Source: a plasmid
Strand: one strand, 5' to 3'
NCBI RefSeq assembly: GCF_057098645.1
Contig: NZ_JBXSPU010000005.1
DNA: 4,285 bases
Part shown: one piece after another, positions 1 to 4,285 of the stretch
How positions within the stretch are numbered: the stretch's first letter is position 1
Layout of the letters: each line of letters opens with the position of its first letter
Program-made: the position numbers and the translations under genes
The notes under the pieces: model-generated
The model's input: only the letters and a program-made list of their open reading frames with translations
Database searches by the model: none
What the model was told of the DNA's origin: nothing

Positions 1-915
1 ATGAGCGCCGCGCTTCAATACTTCGAAGAAAATTTACCTCATCGTCCCTATCACACGGATGATCTCGCTTTCGGCCTTCGCATCTCCGGCAAAGGGCGCG
101 CTCTTCTTGCGCGGTACATCCAGCAGAACCAGCCTCATGCGCAGTTCTGGCTGGTTTTTGACGTTGACCGCGAGGGGGCAGCGATTGACTGGAGTGACCG
201 GAACGCTCCCGCGCCGAACATCACCGTAAAAAATCCTGTGAACGGTCATGCTCACCTGCTCTACGCGCTCAATATCGCCGTGAGAACCGCGCCGGACAGC
301 TCGGTTAAGGCGCTGAAATACGCCGCTGCGATTGAACGTTCGCTGTGTGAGAAACTTTGTGCTGATGTGAACTACAGCGGACTGATTTGTAAAAATCCGT
401 TCCACCTGGAATGGCAGGTGATGGAGTGGCGAGAGGAAGCCTATACCCTCGGTGAACTGGCTGATTATCTCGATTTGAGTGCCTCAGCGCGCCGTAGCAT
501 CGATAAACGTTACGGGATGGGGCGAAACTGCCACCTGTTCGAAATGACGCGCAAATGGGCTTACAGGGCGATTCGTCAGGGCTGGCCAGCATTCTCACAG
601 TGGCTTGATGCCGTGATTCAGCGTGTCGAAATGTACAACGCATCGCTTCCCGTTCCGCTTTCTCCGGCTGAATGTCGGGCTATTGGCAAGAGTATTGCGA
701 AATACACGCACAGGAACTTCACGCCGGAAACTTTCGCACAGTATGTGGCTGATACGCACACGCCAGAAATTCAGGCTACACGCGGTCGCAAGGGCGGTTC
801 TAAGTCTAAGCGCGGCACAGTAGCTACATCAGCACGCACGCTGAAACCTTGGGAGAAATTAGGGATCAGTCGCGCCTGGTATTACCAACTGAAAAAACGA
901 GGTCTCGTAGAGTAG
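1..915 (+). CDS. rep: ColE2-family plasmid replication initiator Rep (origin-specific, primase-type initiator)
   Basis: Uninterrupted 304-codon ORF from ATG at 1 to TAG at 913-915. The translation resembles, from memory, Rep of ColE2/ColE3-type plasmids (about 300 aa), for example WSDRNAPAPNITVKNPVNGHAHLLYAL, NYSGLICKNP and RQGWPAFSQWLDAVIQRVEMYNASLPVPLSPAECRAIGKSIAKYTHR. A ColE2-like origin sequence follows the stop directly, as in that family. The start coincides with the window edge, so upstream signals cannot be checked here. Not verified by search. Confidence 0.88.
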   Translation: MSAALQYFEENLPHRPYHTDDLAFGLRISGKGRALLARYIQQNQPHAQFWLVFDVDREGAAIDWSDRNAPAPNITVKNPVNGHAHLLYALNIAVRTAPDSSVKALKYAAAIERSLCEKLCADVNYSGLICKNPFHLEWQVMEWREEAYTLGELADYLDLSASARRSIDKRYGMGRNCHLFEMTRKWAYRAIRQGWPAFSQWLDAVIQRVEMYNASLPVPLSPAECRAIGKSIAKYTHRNFTPETFAQYVADTHTPEIQATRGRKGGSKSKRGTVATSARTLKPWEKLGISRAWYYQLKKRGLVE

Positions 916-966
916 ACCAAATAAGCCTATATCAGATAACAGCGCCTTTTTGGCGTCTTTTTAAGC
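916..966 (+). other. ColE2-type origin of vegetative replication (Rep binding and priming site)
   Basis: ACCAAATAAGCCTATATCAGATAACAGCGCCTTTTTGGCGTCTTTTTAAGCAG lies immediately 3' of rep. It closely matches the ColE2-P9 origin region as I recall it (...AGATAAGCCTTATCAGATAACAGCGCCCTTTTGGCGTCTTTTTGAG...). It contains a small hairpin CGCC(TTTTT)GGCG followed by a T-run, which could also act as the rep terminator. Exact minimal-origin boundaries are not determinable by eye. Confidence 0.6.
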
Positions 967-1030
967 AGCTTGGTTTGTTGCTATTTCCCTCGTTGAATCC
1001 CGCAATGGCGCGGCTTTCCGTATGATTGAG

Positions 1031-1130
1031 GTGGTAGCGCTCGCCGCAGTCTCATGACCGAGCGTAGCGAGCGAATGAGCGAGGAAGCGCAACGGTGTCC
1101 GGTGGTGCATGTGGCACTTACGCGCCGGGG
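1031..1130. other. Segment resembling the ColE1/pMB1 ori-downstream region (candidate single-strand initiation / primosome assembly site)
   Basis: GCGCTCGCCGCAGTCTCATGACCGAGCGTAGCGAGCGAATGAGCGAGGAAGCG (1037-1089) is roughly 80% identical by eye to the pBR322/pUC segment GCTCGCCGCAGCCGAACGACCGAGCGCAGCGAGTCAGTGAGCGAGGAAGCGGAAGAGCGCC, which lies about 100-200 bp downstream of the pMB1 ori. Weaker similarity (GGTTTCTCC...) continues to about 1160. The reference sequence is recalled from memory. The functional assignment as a PriA-type pas is inference. Confidence 0.45.
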
Positions 1131-1140
1131 TTTCTCCGTT

Positions 1141-1407
1141 CTACGGTTTCGCAGGTGGTTTGGGTAGCTTCTCCAGCTCGTTAATCAGCGGTTGTATCCG
1201 GTTCACATCGGCCTGTCTTGTGACTTCCTTTCGCAGGAACTGGAGCAGGAACGCACGCAGTTGCGCCTCTTCCGGCCTCCGTACCCTCGCCAGCATGGCA
1301 GCCCCCACAATGACTTTTTGCGCCGTGTCCAGGCTCCGGCTCTTCGCCTTCAGGCGCTGCAATCTGGCCTCAGTTTCGGCAATCTTCTGTTCGAGTGTTC
1401 TGCTCAT
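1141..1407 (-). CDS. mobC: Mobilization accessory protein MobC (RSF1010 MobC-like)
   Basis: 88-codon ORF on the minus strand with ATG at complement of 1405-1407 and stop at complement of 1141-1143. GGAG Shine-Dalgarno at complement of 1415-1418 with a 7-nt spacer. An N-terminal coiled-coil-like segment (LEQKIAETEARLQRLKAKSR) is followed by DTAQKVIVGAAMLARV, matching the conserved core of RSF1010 MobC as I recall it (ETRRKVLVGAMILAKV). It is divergent from mobA with an oriT-like sequence between them, as in RSF1010. Confidence 0.8.
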   Translation of the reverse strand: MSRTLEQKIAETEARLQRLKAKSRSLDTAQKVIVGAAMLARVRRPEEAQLRAFLLQFLRKEVTRQADVNRIQPLINELEKLPKPPAKP

Positions 1408-1431
1408 TTTGTGACTCCGTGCGCGGTGAAA

Positions 1432-1487
1432 AATCGCATTTTAGCGCGTCACTGGTAGTTTAAAAACTGAGCTGGCATAATGCACGG
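1432..1487. promoter_or_regulatory. Candidate divergent promoters for mobC (minus strand) and mobA (plus strand)
   Basis: Plus strand: extended -10-like TGgCATAAT (1473-1481), about 100 nt upstream of the mobA ATG and just before the oriT-like inverted repeat. Minus strand: TAAAAT (complement of 1438-1443), about 30 nt upstream of the mobC ATG. The -35 elements are weak on both strands. By-eye match to sigma70 consensus only. Confidence 0.3.
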
Positions 1488-1491
1488 CATA

Positions 1492-1546
1492 TCACGAAGT
1501 GCGCACTTATACAATCTTCACTTCGTTTCGATTGTGTGCGCCCTGC
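1492..1546 (+). other. Candidate origin of transfer (oriT) with MOBQ/RSF1010-like nic region
   Basis: Inverted repeat ACGAAGTG (1494-1501) / CACTTCGT (1521-1528), which includes the 12-bp palindrome AAGTGCGCACTT (1496-1507). It is followed 7 nt later by GTGCGCCCT (1536-1544), matching the RSF1010/R1162 nic sequence TAAGTGCG|CCCT as I recall it. Predicted nick between 1540 and 1541 on the plus strand. The position between divergent mobC and mobA fits IncQ-type mob modules. Confidence 0.5.
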
Positions 1547-1585
1547 GGGGCTGAAAGAAAACGGCAAAAAGGCATTACGGCAGAA

Positions 1586-3805
1586 ATGGCGATTTATCAT
1601 CTCAGCATGAAAATCATTTCGCGAAAAAACGGCTACAGTGCCGTTGCTTCTGCTGCCTACCGTTCCGGCTCTGTCATACCCGATGACCGTACCGGATTAA
1701 TCCACGATTACACCCGTAAACGCGGCGTTGATGATGCGGTCATTCTCACCCCTGCGAATGCACCGTCCTGGTGTGGTGACCGTTCCGTTCTCTGGAATGC
1801 GGTCGAGAAAGCCGAACAGCGCCGGAACTCCCAGCTGGCAAGGGAGATTGAACTCGCCATTCCCCGTGAGATTTCCCGCGAGGCCGCACGGGAGGCCGTT
1901 CTCGCTTTTGTCCGGGAAAACTTTGTCAGTCGGGGCATGATTGCCGATGTGGCGTTCCATCATATGGACCGGACCAACCCCCATGCACACATCATGCTGA
2001 CCACGAGAGCTGTCGGGGAAACGGGATTCGCAGGAAAGGTCAGGGACTGGAACGACCGGGCACTCGCCGAGACGTGGCGCGCATCATGGGCTGACCATGC
2101 GAACAGAGCGCTTGCGAACGCCGGCTACCAGGAAGAGATAGACCATCGTTCATACGAGCGTCAGGGACTGGAGAAAGCGCCGGGCCTTCACCTCGGAAAG
2201 GCTGCCTGTGCGATGGAAAAACGGGGCATGGAAACAGAACGCGGTGAGCAGAACCGCCTGATTAACAGCCTTAACCTGGAAATACAGGTTTCCCGCACAA
2301 GGCTGGCAGTCATCCAGGTACAGGAGAACGTGCGGAAACGGGAACTCAGCGATGCCGCACGTCGTGCAGCGGAAGCCCTTAATCTGACCATTCCCGCCGC
2401 GAATGCCTCAGCGGATACCCTGCGGGAATTCATTGCCACACTGCCGCAGGAATGCGGGAACGCATGGGAGATGACACCGGAGTTCGTGGCGATGAACGGG
2501 AAGGCAAACGACATCAAACGTGAGGGGAATGCGCTGGTGAAAGAGCGGGATATTCTCGAAAAAGAGATGACCGGACTCAGAAAAGCCCGTCCGGTAGCGT
2601 CCATCCTGTCAGAGCTTCCCCTGATGACATGGGCTGAACCGGAATACCGCAAAAGACAACTCCGCTTCTGGAAACTCGAGAAACAGATTGAATCTCTTCT
2701 CCGCACCTACAGGGCCGTGAAAGAACGGGACATTCCCGTCCGTCGTCAGGCCTTTGAAACGCAGTGGAATACGTGGATTTCGCCGGGAATGGCAGAGCTG
2801 AAAGAAAAACTGTCAGCACGGGAAGCGGAGCGGCGCAGGGAGGAAGCCGAAGCGGAAGCGCGCCGGAAGGAACAGGAATATGACGCACGGCTGAAACACC
2901 ATGATAACCATCGCCTGAGCCGAGAAACGGCATTAGCCGGGGTTATTACGGAGCTGGGGCGTGCCAGAGAGCCGGGAACGGGCAGGATAACCCGCTACAT
3001 GATGCTGAGTAACAGAGCCGGAGAATTCACGGTATGGGGTGATGAGCTGGCGCATTACCCCCAGAGTGTTCATGACCCGGTGAATGTTTACCTGTCGCCA
3101 GGCGGGGCTGTGATGGTCTCGGATATACGTGAGGGAATGCCAGAATCTCATGAGACGATGGCGCGGCCTGAGCGTGTGAGAATGTATTCCGGTGCGACGG
3201 TCCGGCATGTACTGGAACAGATGCGCCAGGGGTGGCCCTCTTACGGTTTTCCGGCGCTGCCGCATCACTGGCCGGATAATTTTTATTTCAGCGACGACCG
3301 CAGGCCCGCAGCCTCTCCGCTGCCGTCAGCGCACCGGGTGGACGTCACCGCTTATGCGGCACCGGAGCAACTCATGCCCGTTGTCTTTTCGACAGAGCGA
3401 AACAGCAGGACGCTGAATCTGCTGTTGTGCGAAGGGCCGGAGGAAATGCTTGTCGGTTTTGTGCGCCTGGAGGACGAGCTGCGTCCCGTTCTTGCGCTTC
3501 CGTCGCCGGATTACAGTCATCTGATGGTAAGCATCATCACAGAGAACGGGATACACCTGGCAGGCTACGGTGAGGCCATAAACCGTGATGCTGATACTCC
3601 GTACCCACCGGAACCGAAGCTGATGCAGTTCAGGCTTAAGGGCTGTCAGGACACGCTTTTTGCTGCCATCAACAAACCGGAAGAGATGCCGGATTATCTC
3701 TTCCGTCAACTCGGATTTAATCAGACCTGGCATGAATGGAAGCGGGACGAACAGCACAGGCAACAACAACGACGCCCCGGACATTACCGGGGCATGAGTA
3801 TGTGA
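1586..3805 (+). CDS. mobA: Mobilization relaxase MobA (MobA/MobL family, MOBQ), with a long C-terminal region of unrecognised function
   Basis: Frame is open from GTG 1499 to TGA 3803-3805. I place the start at ATG 1586 because the product then begins MAIYHLSMKIISR, the canonical N-terminus of MOBQ relaxases (RSF1010 MobA begins MAIYHLTAKTGSR). Catalytic Tyr25 is at codon 1658-1660 and the histidine-triad motif HHMDRTNPHAHIM at residues 125-137 (about 1958-1996). WADHANRALANAGYQEEIDHRSYERQG also matches RSF1010 MobA (WADHANRALERAGHDARIDHRTLEAQG). No strong Shine-Dalgarno precedes 1586, so the start is not exact. Residues from about 240 to 740 have no motif I recognise. Confidence 0.9.
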   Translation: MAIYHLSMKIISRKNGYSAVASAAYRSGSVIPDDRTGLIHDYTRKRGVDDAVILTPANAPSWCGDRSVLWNAVEKAEQRRNSQLAREIELAIPREISREAAREAVLAFVRENFVSRGMIADVAFHHMDRTNPHAHIMLTTRAVGETGFAGKVRDWNDRALAETWRASWADHANRALANAGYQEEIDHRSYERQGLEKAPGLHLGKAACAMEKRGMETERGEQNRLINSLNLEIQVSRTRLAVIQVQENVRKRELSDAARRAAEALNLTIPAANASADTLREFIATLPQECGNAWEMTPEFVAMNGKANDIKREGNALVKERDILEKEMTGLRKARPVASILSELPLMTWAEPEYRKRQLRFWKLEKQIESLLRTYRAVKERDIPVRRQAFETQWNTWISPGMAELKEKLSAREAERRREEAEAEARRKEQEYDARLKHHDNHRLSRETALAGVITELGRAREPGTGRITRYMMLSNRAGEFTVWGDELAHYPQSVHDPVNVYLSPGGAVMVSDIREGMPESHETMARPERVRMYSGATVRHVLEQMRQGWPSYGFPALPHHWPDNFYFSDDRRPAASPLPSAHRVDVTAYAAPEQLMPVVFSTERNSRTLNLLLCEGPEEMLVGFVRLEDELRPVLALPSPDYSHLMVSIITENGIHLAGYGEAINRDADTPYPPEPKLMQFRLKGCQDTLFAAINKPEEMPDYLFRQLGFNQTWHEWKRDEQHRQQQRRPGHYRGMSM

Positions 3806-3837
3806 TATCCGGGGCTGCACCCCGAACCCCGCCAACG

Positions 3838-3880
3838 TCTCACGGGACACGAAAAAATTCCGCGTCCCGTGAGGCGTTTT
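3838..3880 (+). terminator. Candidate intrinsic terminator of mobA
   Basis: Inverted repeat CTCACGGGAC (3839-3848) / GTCCCGTGAG (3864-3873) with a 15-nt loop, followed by GCGTTTT (3874-3880), 34 nt after the mobA stop. The long loop is atypical. A smaller hairpin CGGGG(CTGCA)CCCCG sits at 3810-3824. Confidence 0.5.
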
Positions 3881-3951
3881 CTGGATGAGAAAGTTTGCCG
3901 TTTTGACCCGTTCGCGCTTCTGAACGGTCGAAACCGATCGCGCATCGCTTT

Positions 3952-3969
3952 CGTGAATAGTTATGCAGA
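3952..3969. promoter_or_regulatory. ARG-box-like element (candidate ArgR accessory site of the cer-like site)
   Basis: cgTGAATagttATGCAga compared with the ARG box consensus tnTGAATwwwwATTCAnw: TGAAT is exact and ATGCA differs from ATTCA at one position. Its centre lies about 120 bp upstream of the Xer core centre, similar to the ArgR site spacing in cer-type sites. Confidence 0.4.
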
Positions 3970-4068
3970 CCCCTGAAAACGATTCTGACGCGTTTTTCTG
4001 GTTTGGCCTGGTGTTTTCTTGTCTTTTTGTGTTTTTTGCGTCAGAACGCGTCTGAGAGCGTTTTAAGG

Positions 4069-4096
4069 GGTACGTACAACAGGAGTTATGGTAAAT
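4069..4096 (+). other. cer-like Xer site-specific recombination core (XerC arm, 6-bp central region, XerD arm) for plasmid multimer resolution
   Basis: GGTACGTACAA (4069-4079), CAGGAG (4080-4085), TTATGGTAAAT (4086-4096). The right arm is identical, and the left arm has one mismatch, to the ColE1 cer arms as I recall them (GGTGCGTACAA / TTATGGTAAAT). The central region is 6 bp (cer has 8; psi and dif have 6). About 170 bp of upstream sequence is available as accessory region. Confidence 0.7.
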
Positions 4097-4268
4097 GGAT
4101 CGGGTTTTGGGGAATAATCGACAGGGTTTGCCGTTGGGTGTAGTGTAAGCGACTGAAAAACAAACGCCCCGTAAATCGTGCTCTCACCGCCAAGATTGAT
4201 CACGAAATTACAGGGCGCCGGGTTCCGCGTCTCCCGATGGGAAAGCGCGGTTAGTTAAACTGTGTACC

Positions 4269-4285
4269 GAGAGGAATCGTAACAC
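4269..4285 (+). promoter_or_regulatory. Shine-Dalgarno-like element positioned for rep if the window is a circular replicon
   Basis: GAGAGGAA at 4269-4276 lies 9 nt before the end of the window, and the rep ATG is window position 1. If 4285 joins 1, this is a ribosome-binding site with a spacer of about 9-10 nt. The window length is also plasmid-sized. Circularity is not provable from the sequence alone. Confidence 0.3.

Follow-up and report, generated by a model that had tools for sequence, protein, structure and literature searches.

The window, by which we mean the whole 4,285-bp stretch of DNA analysed here, contains only three credible genes, rep, mobC (88 aa), and mobA (739 aa), which are listed with their associated sites in Table 1. 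The first-pass annotation had described a backbone of rep, ori, a pas-like site, mobC, oriT, mobA, and a cer-like site, and every one of these elements was recovered by homology. Its statement that every long ORF was accounted for was slightly generous, as Pfam recognizes nothing in MobA residues 221 to 739 (~70% of the protein), even with the cutoff relaxed to E ≤ 10.

Table 1. Features of the 4,285-bp window
Feature	Position	Strand	Description
rep	1-915	+	ColE2-type initiator, plasmid-specific primase by homology, 304 aa
ori	914-946	+	ColE2-type minimal origin, overlaps rep stop codon
Terminator-like hairpin and T-run after rep/ori	942-962	+	GCGCCTTTTTGGCGT then CTTTTT, from terminator scan
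pas/ssi-like sequence	1034-1123	+	Similar to ColE1 primosome assembly site
mobC	1141-1407	-	Relaxase accessory protein, 88 aa, as in MOBQ4 plasmids; divergent from mobA
oriT	1408-1585		178-bp mobC-mobA gap; inverted repeat 1494-1501/1519-1526; GTGCGCCCT at 1536-1544
mobA	1586-3805	+	MOBQ4 relaxase, 739 aa; relaxase domain in residues 1-213
Likely mobA terminator	3834-3882	+	Long hairpin (21-nt arms) and TTTTCT; left edge of cargo slot
Empty cargo slot	3883-3886		4 bp (GGAT)
cer-like multimer resolution site	3887-4096	+	Accessory sequence, ArgR-box-like CGTGAATAGTTATGCAGA (3952-3969), and core
Xer core	4069-4096	+	GGTACGTACAA (4069-4079)/CAGGAG (4080-4085)/TTATGGTAAAT (4086-4096)
Candidate RNAI	4156-4272	-	Antisense RNA to rep mRNA leader; ends inferred
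rep translation-initiation region	4266-4285	+	GAGAGGAA at 4269-4276
Putative RNAI promoter	-10, 4281 to 4276; -35, 18 to 13	-	TACGAT (-10) and TTGAAG (-35), read from sequence; straddles the 4285/1 junction

Circular closure and replication region

The window is almost certainly a single, complete, circular cryptic plasmid of the ColE2-like (PlasmidFinder Col156)/MOBQ42 family that has been linearized at the rep start codon. It begins with the ATG of the 304-aa Rep ORF and its 3' end reads ...ACCGAGAGGAATCGTAACAC, and the published ColE2-P9 repA leader and start (61 nt) align without gaps over 4266-4285 followed by 1-41. These features agree with the earlier proposal of a circle rotated to rep, with a Shine-Dalgarno-like sequence at its end. 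When the circularized window was compared with a 4,412-bp public contig (L027; GCA_052949155.1, JBQYDA010000056.1), the two were 100.000% identical over the full length of the contig, which runs continuously from 4285 into 1 and has ends that overlap exactly by 127 bp; once this overlap is subtracted, exactly 4,285 unique bases remain. The 4285/1 junction is likewise unbroken in three circular records, namely, pColE8 (4325 to 4326), pDETEC85 (239 to 240), and AP019765. Matches to the window were found in 1,582 plasmid records, 97 of which cover at least 80% of it.

Rep carries the Replicase (PF03090, 7.7e-44) and PriCT_1 (PF08708, 6.2e-05) domains, both above their gathering scores, and it therefore fits the MOBQ42 Rep signature, which combines these two families (PMC6856555). 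Its residues 174 to 297 match the DNA-binding domain of ColE2-P9 Rep (PDB 3VW4; E = 9.3e-57), and 303 of its 304 residues are identical in pColE8 Rep. The exact protein occurs in 144 blocks of public contigs, with 90 blocks on 2- to 5-kb contigs and 42 on 5- to 10-kb contigs. The origin lies directly downstream of rep in ColE2-like plasmids (PMC6856555, PMC2831885), and the ori of the window shares 31/32 identities with the ColE2-P9 minimal origin (reference sequence from Additional file 1 of PMC3163176) plus one inserted base (A929). The terminator-like hairpin that follows was also picked out by a tandem repeat finder and a repeat finder. Further downstream, the pas-like sequence matches positions 1306-1395 of ColE1 (NC_001371.1) at 70 of 90 positions (78%; E = 2e-15, blastn), a segment that we take to be the n'/PriA pas site of ColE1; by this similarity, the site may prime the lagging strand.

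Although the earlier account of replication stood as far as rep, ori, and the pas-like site are concerned, it overlooked a candidate antisense RNAI upstream of rep. The minus strand from 4272 to 4156 folds into two hairpins followed by a U-run (-44.1 kcal/mol, z = -2.87), and its loop CTTGGCGG, terminator, and putative promoter are kept across leader types whose stems differ. The adjoining translation-initiation region is identical to the ColE2-P9 "rbs.repA" leader at 18 of 20 positions, with ATGAGCGCC immediately after it. A consensus promoter scan of the linear window, which cannot span the junction where the putative RNAI promoter sits, returned no promoter at its threshold, and an Rfam search of the window, RNAI region included, returned no family above threshold. 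Antisense RNAI has been described for ColE2-like plasmids (PMC6856555), and ColE2-P9 replicates unidirectionally by a theta mechanism that depends on a Rep-made primer and DNA polymerase I (PMC4538821). Judging from this literature on close homologues, Rep would bind the ~32-bp origin that immediately follows the rep gene and make a short primer, DNA polymerase I would extend that primer, and RNAI (~4272 to 4156) would pair with the rep mRNA leader and thereby set the copy number.

Mobilization region

MobC is identical to ColE9-J MobC at 85 of 88 residues and to pColE8 MobC at 87 of 88, while searches of Pfam and NCBIfam gave no match for it. The oriT region is identical to that of ColE9-J at 169 of 176 positions, including 100% identity over 1491-1580, and its GTGCGCCCT motif appears to resemble the RSF1010/R1162 nick region. 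A survey of these plasmids enters the pColE8 homologue of MobC under the name mobC (Table S2) and reports a 0.6-log drop in MOBQ42 mobilization when mobC is deleted (PMC6856555). The same study gives the MOBQ4 oriT as 178 bp and reports oriT activity for the 178-bp region of a ColE9-J-like plasmid. In MOBQ4 modules, this oriT separates mobA from a divergent mobC of fewer than 100 aa, an arrangement that the window shares.

MobA matches PF03389 (2.3e-70) and the MobQ model NF041496 (260.9 bits against a cutoff of 200), and its structural matches are PDB 4HT4 (8.5e-30) and 2NS6 (1.6e-09). All six motif residues (Y25, E87, E89, H125, H133, and H135) are present. Of its 739 residues, 733 (99.2%) are shared with the MobA of pColE8, a relaxase classified as MOBQ42 (PMC6856555). 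Among public contigs, 34 blocks contain exactly this MobA sequence, and 32 of them lie on contigs of 2 to 5 kb.

By analogy with these homologues, the plasmid would be incapable of self-transfer but mobilizable: MobA, assisted by MobC, would nick oriT in the 178-bp gap and then rely on mating machinery supplied by a conjugative helper. A ColE9-J-like construct was mobilized by helpers, best by those of the MPF_I (IncI-type) class, and its relaxase acted in cis (PMC6856555). The functions ascribed here to oriT and MobC in the window plasmid are predictions from that literature.

MobA residues 443 to 715 (nucleotides 2912-3730) resemble the C terminus of SogL. The MobA C terminus shares 40% identity with the terminal part of E. 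coli primase/LPD7 proteins (E = 9e-56) and 34 to 37% identity with genes annotated as sogL on large conjugative plasmids. This similarity provides a testable explanation of why the family is mobilized best by IncI-type helpers.

An empty colicin slot and a mosaic history

The likely mobA terminator contains an inverted repeat (3834-3854/3858-3878) that is 86% complementary, and a different hairpin occupies its place in the colicin-bearing relatives. At the next 4 bp, the 6.7- to 6.8-kb relatives carry ~2.47 kb comprising the colicin promoter and the colicin, immunity, and lysis genes. By blastn, window positions 1-3882 correspond to pColE8 positions 4326 through 1455 and positions 3887-4285 correspond to 3927-4325, with the pColE8 operon (1456-3926) absent at 3883-3886. 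The same break recurs in comparisons with the relatives L003, L008, L014, and L015 to L021. Near-identical small plasmids, for which the first-pass annotation had suggested looking, do exist: the 155 bp spanning the empty slot recur with 100% identity in 19 PLSDB records, of which 16 are 4.2 to 4.7 kb in length; the host species include E. coli, Salmonella, and Shigella.

The window is free of resistance, defence, and toxin-antitoxin genes and of genes for a colicin, its immunity protein, or lysis; the absence of defence, resistance, colicin, and toxin-antitoxin genes had already been claimed from the letters. No colicin, immunity, or lysis ORF was found in it; for the ten leftover ORFs, Pfam yielded no credible match and PADLOC yielded none, and a tRNA search of the window returned none. 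That cargo is nonetheless hidden in the window, either as a small protein or RNA in the noncoding 480 bp (3806-4285) or as a nontransfer function in the 520-aa remainder of MobA, is highly unlikely. In its favour are the MobA segment that Pfam leaves unmatched and the small ORFs at 4003-4143 (+), 4063-4203 (-), and 3784-3945 (-); a transcript embedded in cer is also conceivable, as the Rcd RNA of ColE1 is specified within cer (PMC2831885). However, the small ORFs overlap cer and the RNAI/leader region and have no family match beyond one at chance level (E = 0.079), the MobA C terminus is homologous to that of SogL from IncI1-type plasmids, itself a conjugation protein, and 3806-4285 is fully covered by the terminator, cer, and the rep leader/RNAI. 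The plasmid is thus of an ordinary, known ColE2/MOBQ4 kind, with functions limited to replication, mobilization, and dimer resolution, and since it is of a known kind, it can leave any list of candidate new systems.

Sites of the cer type consist of 11-bp XerC and XerD arms with 6 to 8 bp between them, preceded by ~180 bp of accessory sequence that includes an ArgR box and binds PepA. The cer-like site that borders the slot on the right is 62% identical to ColE1 cer in a global alignment (score of 137, versus 78.8 ± 7.3 for shuffled sequences). Its XerC and XerD arms match those of ColE1 at 10 of 11 and 11 of 11 positions, respectively, around a spacer of 6 bp rather than 8 bp, and the ArgR-box-like sequence, a 15/18 match, aligns with the position of the ColE1 box. 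ColE2-like plasmids carry cer-like XerCD sites (PMC6856555, PMC2831885), and by extension from these close homologues, host XerCD, together with ArgR and PepA, would resolve dimers of the window plasmid at this site. Separately, the 4.7-kb relatives dock a 429-bp module at the cer core, where it is bracketed by two cores.

Although the bare-backbone view was borne out in that no cargo is present, the plasmid is better viewed as the sibling of a DNase-colicin plasmid, one that has recombined and lacks the colicin. Relative to a Logan contig of a 6,779-bp DNase-colicin plasmid (L017), the window differs at 2 positions within 1-3735 and at no position within 4031-4285, whereas the intervening 3736-4030 has 43 mismatches and the operon indel. 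In turn, window positions 1447-4103 differ by a single mismatch from a 4,234-bp colicin-less plasmid (L005). Since the window is nearly identical to the colicin plasmid except at 3736-4030 and nearly identical to the 4,234-bp family over 1447-4103, it is a recombinant with a mosaic structure. The replicon and most of the mob region are virtually identical to those of the 6.8-kb DNase-colicin plasmids. The segment between the last part of mobA and the cer core, which in those plasmids holds the colicin operon, is the short colicin-less version known from the widespread 4,234-bp family.

These data also bear on whether the window is an assembly artefact, either because the assembler lost or collapsed the operon of a 6.8-kb colicin plasmid or because the window is part of something larger. 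Its closest overall relatives are indeed colicin plasmids of 6.75 to 6.8 kb, and the exact Rep is also found on plasmids of that kind. Against this, the same empty junction is present in the 19 independently assembled PLSDB records, the 4,412-bp contig closes on itself at exactly 4,285 bp, and the exact MobA is found almost only on 2- to 5-kb contigs. Moreover, the slot flanks at 3736-4030 are of the colicin-less-family version rather than the colicin-plasmid version, so a simple assembly collapse would not have produced the window. We regard an artefact as extremely improbable.

How the recombinant arose is a matter on which we can offer only a tentative proposal. The ColE2-type colicin operon may be a swappable module that is bounded on one side by the 3' terminus of mobA and on the other by the cer core, with XerCD acting at cer to supply one of the two crossovers and the window being the product of a very recent exchange. 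The right crossover falls within 4031-4103, an interval that contains the Xer core, and sequences to the left and right of the core reassort among relatives. Given that the crossover can be placed only to this interval, ordinary homologous recombination is also compatible with the data. Boundary alignments at the slot edges revealed neither target duplication nor microhomology.

The history may instead have run in reverse, the colicin-less arrangement of mobA terminator followed by cer being ancestral and the colicin segment having been inserted or imported later, in which case the window would not be a recent colicin-loss derivative. Two ColE2-type plasmids with unrelated mob modules (L011, 3,904 bp; L013, 3,897 bp) have a contiguous hairpin, cer, and leader at 89 to 91% identity without a colicin, and the exact Rep is found on more 2- to 5-kb than 5- to 10-kb contigs. 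We nevertheless consider this history rather unlikely, as outside 3736-4030 only 2 mismatches in ~4 kb separate the window from the colicin plasmid, albeit nothing in the sequences polarizes loss versus gain of the colicin. This small number of mismatches implies that the exchange was very recent in either direction.

If the proposal of a swappable colicin module is true, the plasmid shed its colicin, immunity, and lysis genes while keeping Rep, ori, and RNAI. Because the Rep, ori, and RNAI region is unchanged, with no mismatches to the 6,779-bp colicin plasmid, the window plasmid would presumably still be incompatible with co-circulating DNase-colicin plasmids. Its near-identity to a colicin plasmid save for one segment ending at cer makes it a clean natural example of module exchange between small plasmids, albeit one of small overall significance, as an ordinary cryptic ColE2/MOBQ4 plasmid.

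Comparison with known plasmids

The window resembles ColE1 in cer and pas; the replicons are unrelated, with a Rep primase in the window and RNAII/RNAI in ColE1. The ColE2-P9 replicon shares with it the Rep domains, the origin (31/32), the leader (18/20), and the first codons of rep, but the window Rep has 9 additional residues (~244 to 252) in its DNA-binding domain and the window ori has one additional base (A929). The pairing of extra Rep residues with an extra ori base appears to resemble the ColE3-type specificity determinants.

Among whole plasmids, pColE8 (NC_012882.1) and near-identical 6.78-kb DNase-colicin plasmids have the same ori, pas, oriT, RNAI region, and gene order as the window. 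They differ in having a ~2.47-kb segment with the colicin, immunity, and lysis genes in place of the 4 bp, and in the flanks at 3736-4030 (43 differences). The 4,234-bp colicin-less family (pHNAH212872-5, NZ_CP104635.1) has the same architecture and an equally empty slot, with a MobA identical at 738 of 739 residues; in contrast, its Rep/ori/RNAI specificity region differs from that of the window, and in L005 Rep is 79% identical and the leader lacks one hairpin. Similarly, pDETEC85 (NZ_CP116174.1; 4,296 bp, circular) has an empty slot and is collinear with the window throughout, but it too differs in the specificity region, and its Rep is 87% identical with a different C terminus (window 799-918 unaligned).

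The MOBQ42 prototype, ColE9-J, shares with the window a ColE2-like Rep, divergent mobC and mobA, a 178-bp oriT, the catalytic residues, and a cer-like site (Garcillan-Barcia et al. 2019, PMC6856555). That survey describes a colicin operon, consisting of a group A nuclease colicin with its immunity and lysis genes, in all MOBQ42 plasmids. Since the window has none, it departs from the 2019 description, although the operon is a descriptive rather than a defining feature of the group. Colicin-less MOBQ42 plasmids thus exist and are common: at least 19 database records have the same empty slot base for base, and this exact MobA was counted in 34 blocks.

Completeness and circularity of the plasmid

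The first-pass annotation had interpreted the start of the window exactly at the rep ATG and its Shine-Dalgarno-like end as the mark of a circular molecule rotated to begin at rep. Both features were read directly at the window ends: the 3' end is ACCGAGAGGAATCGTAACAC, with the Shine-Dalgarno-like GAGAGGAA within it at 4269-4276. The record is 4,285 bases long, which is the whole window. When the circularized window was compared with L027, a 4,412-bp public NCBI contig (GCA_052949155.1, JBQYDA010000056.1), the two were 100.000% identical over the full length of the contig, with L027 bases 250→251 spanning the 4285→1 junction. The terminal 127 bases of L027 are identical at both ends, leaving exactly 4,285 unique bases; since such an overlap is a typical assembler trace of a circular molecule, it supports circularity. 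The junction is also unbroken in the circular plasmids pColE8 (4325→4326), pDETEC85 (239→240), and pO111-110512_4. The 61-nt ColE2-P9 sequence "rbs.repA," which consists of the natural leader followed by the repA start (PMC3163176), aligns gap-free over window positions 4266-4285 and then 1-41. Finally, circular pDETEC85 (4,296 bp) is collinear with the window from end to end, the 11-bp length difference falling in the variable C terminus of Rep. Taken together, these four independent lines of evidence establish that the window is a complete circular plasmid, so that the observation made at its ends and the reading of it as a complete small mobilizable plasmid are both supported. Other family records likewise begin at the rep ATG (e.g., NZ_AP027220.1), and rotation to this codon is a common convention.

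The only three credible genes in the window are rep, mobC, and mobA, and the claim that it carries no cargo also held. None of the ten leftover open reading frames (ORFs), including the long antisense ones, had a PADLOC match, and their sole Pfam match was a chance-level hit to DUF7305 (E = 0.079). No tRNAs and no Rfam families above threshold were detected in the window, where G+C content is even (50-60%). The mobA-rep interval of 480 bp consists entirely of three elements: a terminator hairpin, cer, and the leader of rep with the candidate RNAI.

Replication and mobilization elements

All of the replication (rep, ori, pas-like), mobilization (mobC, oriT, mobA), and cer-like elements listed in the first-pass annotation were recovered by domain or sequence matches, and a candidate RNAI absent from that list was added.

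Features of the plasmid and the matches that identify them
Feature	Position	Strand	Details
rep	1-915	+	304 aa
ori	914-946		31/32 positions match the published ColE2-P9 minimal origin, plus one inserted base
Hairpin and T-run	942-962		After ori
pas-like site	1034-1123		78% identity over 90 nt to ColE1 1306-1395, E = 2e-15
mobC	1141-1407	-	88 aa; 85/88 identical to ColE9-J MobC
oriT	mobC-mobA gap		Exactly 178 bp; 169/176 identical to ColE9-J
mobA	1586-3805	+	739 aa
cer-like core	4069-4096		GGTACGTACAA-CAGGAG-TTATGGTAAAT
Candidate RNAI	~4272 to 4156	-	Two hairpins, then a U-run; -44.1 kcal/mol, z = -2.87
Putative RNAI promoter	-10, 4281→4276; -35, 18→13	-	-10 TACGAT, preceded by TGT; -35 TTGAAG

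Rep contains the Pfam domains Replicase (PF03090, 7.7e-44) and PriCT_1 (PF08708), a pair that is the signature of ColE2-like initiators of PlasmidFinder class Col156 (PMC6856555). The origin, compared with the ColE2-P9 sequence printed in PMC3163176, lies directly 3' of rep, as in descriptions of the family. Residues 174-297 of Rep match the structure of the ColE2-P9 Rep DNA-binding domain (3VW4, E = 9.3e-57). Relative to ColE2-P9, Rep has nine additional residues in this domain (approximately 244-252; window 730-760), and the origin has one additional base (window 929). The longer domain and the extra base presumably resemble the determinants of ColE3-type Rep/ori specificity. The ColE1 segment aligned with the pas-like site is what we take to be the primosome assembly (n') site.

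The minus-strand hairpin element upstream of rep fits a ColE2-like RNAI, the RNA that controls Rep translation in these plasmids (PMC6856555). In related plasmids, the leader types have different stems but retain the CTTGGCGG loop, the terminator, and, upstream, a TTGAAG-16 nt-TACGAT motif. This putative RNAI promoter overlaps the rep start codon and is kept in all leader variants examined. Since its -10 and -35 sequences lie on either side of the 4285/1 junction, the control element would straddle the linearization point. A sigma-70 consensus scan returned no promoters, but the scan stops at the junction, and its threshold excludes the candidate RNAI promoter (8/12). Even at permissive thresholds, Rfam returned only a chance-level match to the archaeal snoRNA sR28 (E = 0.51, inside mobA); ColE2 RNAI has no covering model in this database.

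MobA scores 260.9 bits against the NCBIfam MobQ equivalog (cutoff, 200), matches the relaxase structures of NES and R1162 MobA, and has all six of the catalytic residues named in PMC6856555. Relative to ColE9-J, the oriT region is 100% conserved through both the inverted repeat (1494-1501/1519-1526) and GTGCGCCCT (1536-1544), the latter presumably resembling the RSF1010/R1162 nick region. Judged by sequence, mobC, oriT, and mobA are the MOBQ4 module of that study, in which the 178-bp region of a ColE9-J-like backbone was shown experimentally to act as oriT, deletion of mobC lowered transfer by 0.6 log, and mobilization was highest with IncI-type (MPF_I) helpers (PMC6856555).

Other assignments for these two proteins were considered and rejected. 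Because a 3.9-kb relative has a TraD-family gene at the position equivalent to mobC, MobC was compared with TraD-like accessory proteins; the BLASTP E value was 33, and no Pfam TraD match appeared even at E ≤ 10. A PADLOC match of MobC to the defense protein PglZ (E = 0.0045) was treated as a cross-hit. The match of MobA to the PADLOC defense model DpdH (PDLC02877, E = 7.4e-11; window 1586-2011) is confined to residues 46-142. Since these belong to the relaxase domain and MobA as a whole exceeds the curated MobQ cutoff, the match was likewise read as a cross-hit, one that could mislead automated defense annotation.

No Pfam domain was assigned to the C-terminal part of MobA (residues 221-739), even when matches up to E ≤ 10 were admitted; searching residues 221-739 and 432-739 against PDB sequences likewise gave nothing meaningful. 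Homologue searches alone revealed that residues 443-715 (window 2912-3730) share 40% identity (E = 9e-56) with the very C terminus of E. coli primase/LPD7 proteins and 34 to 37% identity with the products of genes that large conjugative plasmids carry under the annotation sogL or "DNA primase TraC." In tblastn, about 2,300 matches to this region fall below 60% identity. Given that SogL is a substrate exported by the IncI1 transfer system in hundreds of copies (PMC8406263) and that IncI helpers mobilize the family best, the SogL-like domain may recruit MobA to the IncI1 system as a recruitment or translocation module. The 2019 description notes the SogL homology without linking it to the IncI helper preference (PMC6856555).

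The colicin slot and the cer region

Most close relatives are 6.7 to 6.8 kb long and carry a colicin/immunity/lysis operon between mobA and cer. This operon spans 2,471 bp in pColE8 (1456-3926) versus 4 bp in the window (3883-3886). The exact window Rep protein is also found on DNase-colicin plasmids. One of the colicin plasmids, L017, has 6,779 unique bp and aligns to the window with 2 mismatches over 1-3735 and none over 4031-4285, versus 43 differences plus the operon indel within 3736-4030. The 4,234-bp colicin-less family, represented by L005, in contrast has a single mismatch over 1447-4103, with strong divergence confined to the other side of the comparison: rep, ori, and the leader. 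These identity patterns show the window to be a recombinant, in which the replicon and mob region of a colicin plasmid are joined to a short colicin-less segment running from the mobA 3' end to cer. The sequences fit either direction of change, colicin loss or gain. Searches for LexA boxes and for microhomology at the slot edges gave nothing informative.

The left crossover falls inside mobA, between 3566 and 3735. The right crossover maps to 4031-4103, where the 28-bp Xer core is also located; homologous recombination could have made this crossover instead of Xer-site exchange. The segments on either side of the core reassort among relatives, a pattern that Xer-site exchange would be expected to produce.

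The core matches ColE1 cer at 10/11 positions of the XerC arm and 11/11 of the XerD arm; its spacer is 6 bp, against 8 bp in ColE1. The upstream 200 bp are 62% identical to ColE1 cer (score, 137 versus 78.8 ± 7.3 for shuffled sequences), and an ArgR-box-like sequence at 3952-3969 (15/18 to consensus) lies opposite the ColE1 box in the alignment.

Two further differences among relatives were observed in this region. After mobA (window 3834-3882), colicin-less plasmids have the hairpin terminator CTCACGGGAC...GTCCCGTGAG, whereas the colicin-bearing pColE8, L003, and L008 have GGGCCACAAAA...TTTTGTGGCCC; both types are followed by a common GCGTTTTCT, beyond which the two groups diverge. In the 4.7-kb relatives L006 (4069-4553) and L007 (4058-4542; rotated coordinates), a 429-bp insert with its own partial accessory sequence occupies the equivalent of the window cer core, flanked by two Xer core copies. 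The insert encodes a 91-aa ORF (WP_052977602.1) with no Pfam family and resembles a module that Xer recombination docked there or left in place.

Distribution and relation to known plasmids

The empty-slot arrangement is common. The 155 bp across the slot recur at 100% identity in 19 PLSDB entries, which come from E. coli, Salmonella, and Shigella and include 16 of 4.2 to 4.7 kb, and ColE2-type plasmids with unrelated mob genes have the same contiguous region at 89 to 91% identity. The exact window MobA occurs almost exclusively on 2- to 5-kb contigs, and the exact Rep is present in 90 blocks of contigs of this size.

Two further records share parts of this backbone. The 1,541-bp circular plasmid pLAO79 (NZ_OP242288.1) lacks a rep gene and has copies, at ~82 to 84% identity, of the window oriT core (1493-1573), the pas-like site (1038-1092), and the terminator and cer accessory region (3812-4013). 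An 11,009-bp metagenomic scaffold (ENA ERZ28599095 scaffold_1283) has the gene order mobA-rep-mobC-mobA-rep-TraD-mobA, with contributions from at least two or three distinct small plasmids of ColE2 type. The scaffold represents either a genuine cointegrate or a chimeric assembly through segments that these plasmids share.

Near-identical small plasmids exist, a point that the first-pass annotation had proposed to check. No identical record was found in PLSDB or the RefSeq complete E. coli genomes (best match, 98.6%), and all window segments are present at ~100% identity in other plasmids. In every feature tested, the window is a member of the ColE2-like/MOBQ42 family, an ordinary plasmid rather than a novel system. 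It differs from the MOBQ42 plasmids of the 2019 survey in that all members examined there carried a colicin operon (PMC6856555), which the window lacks.
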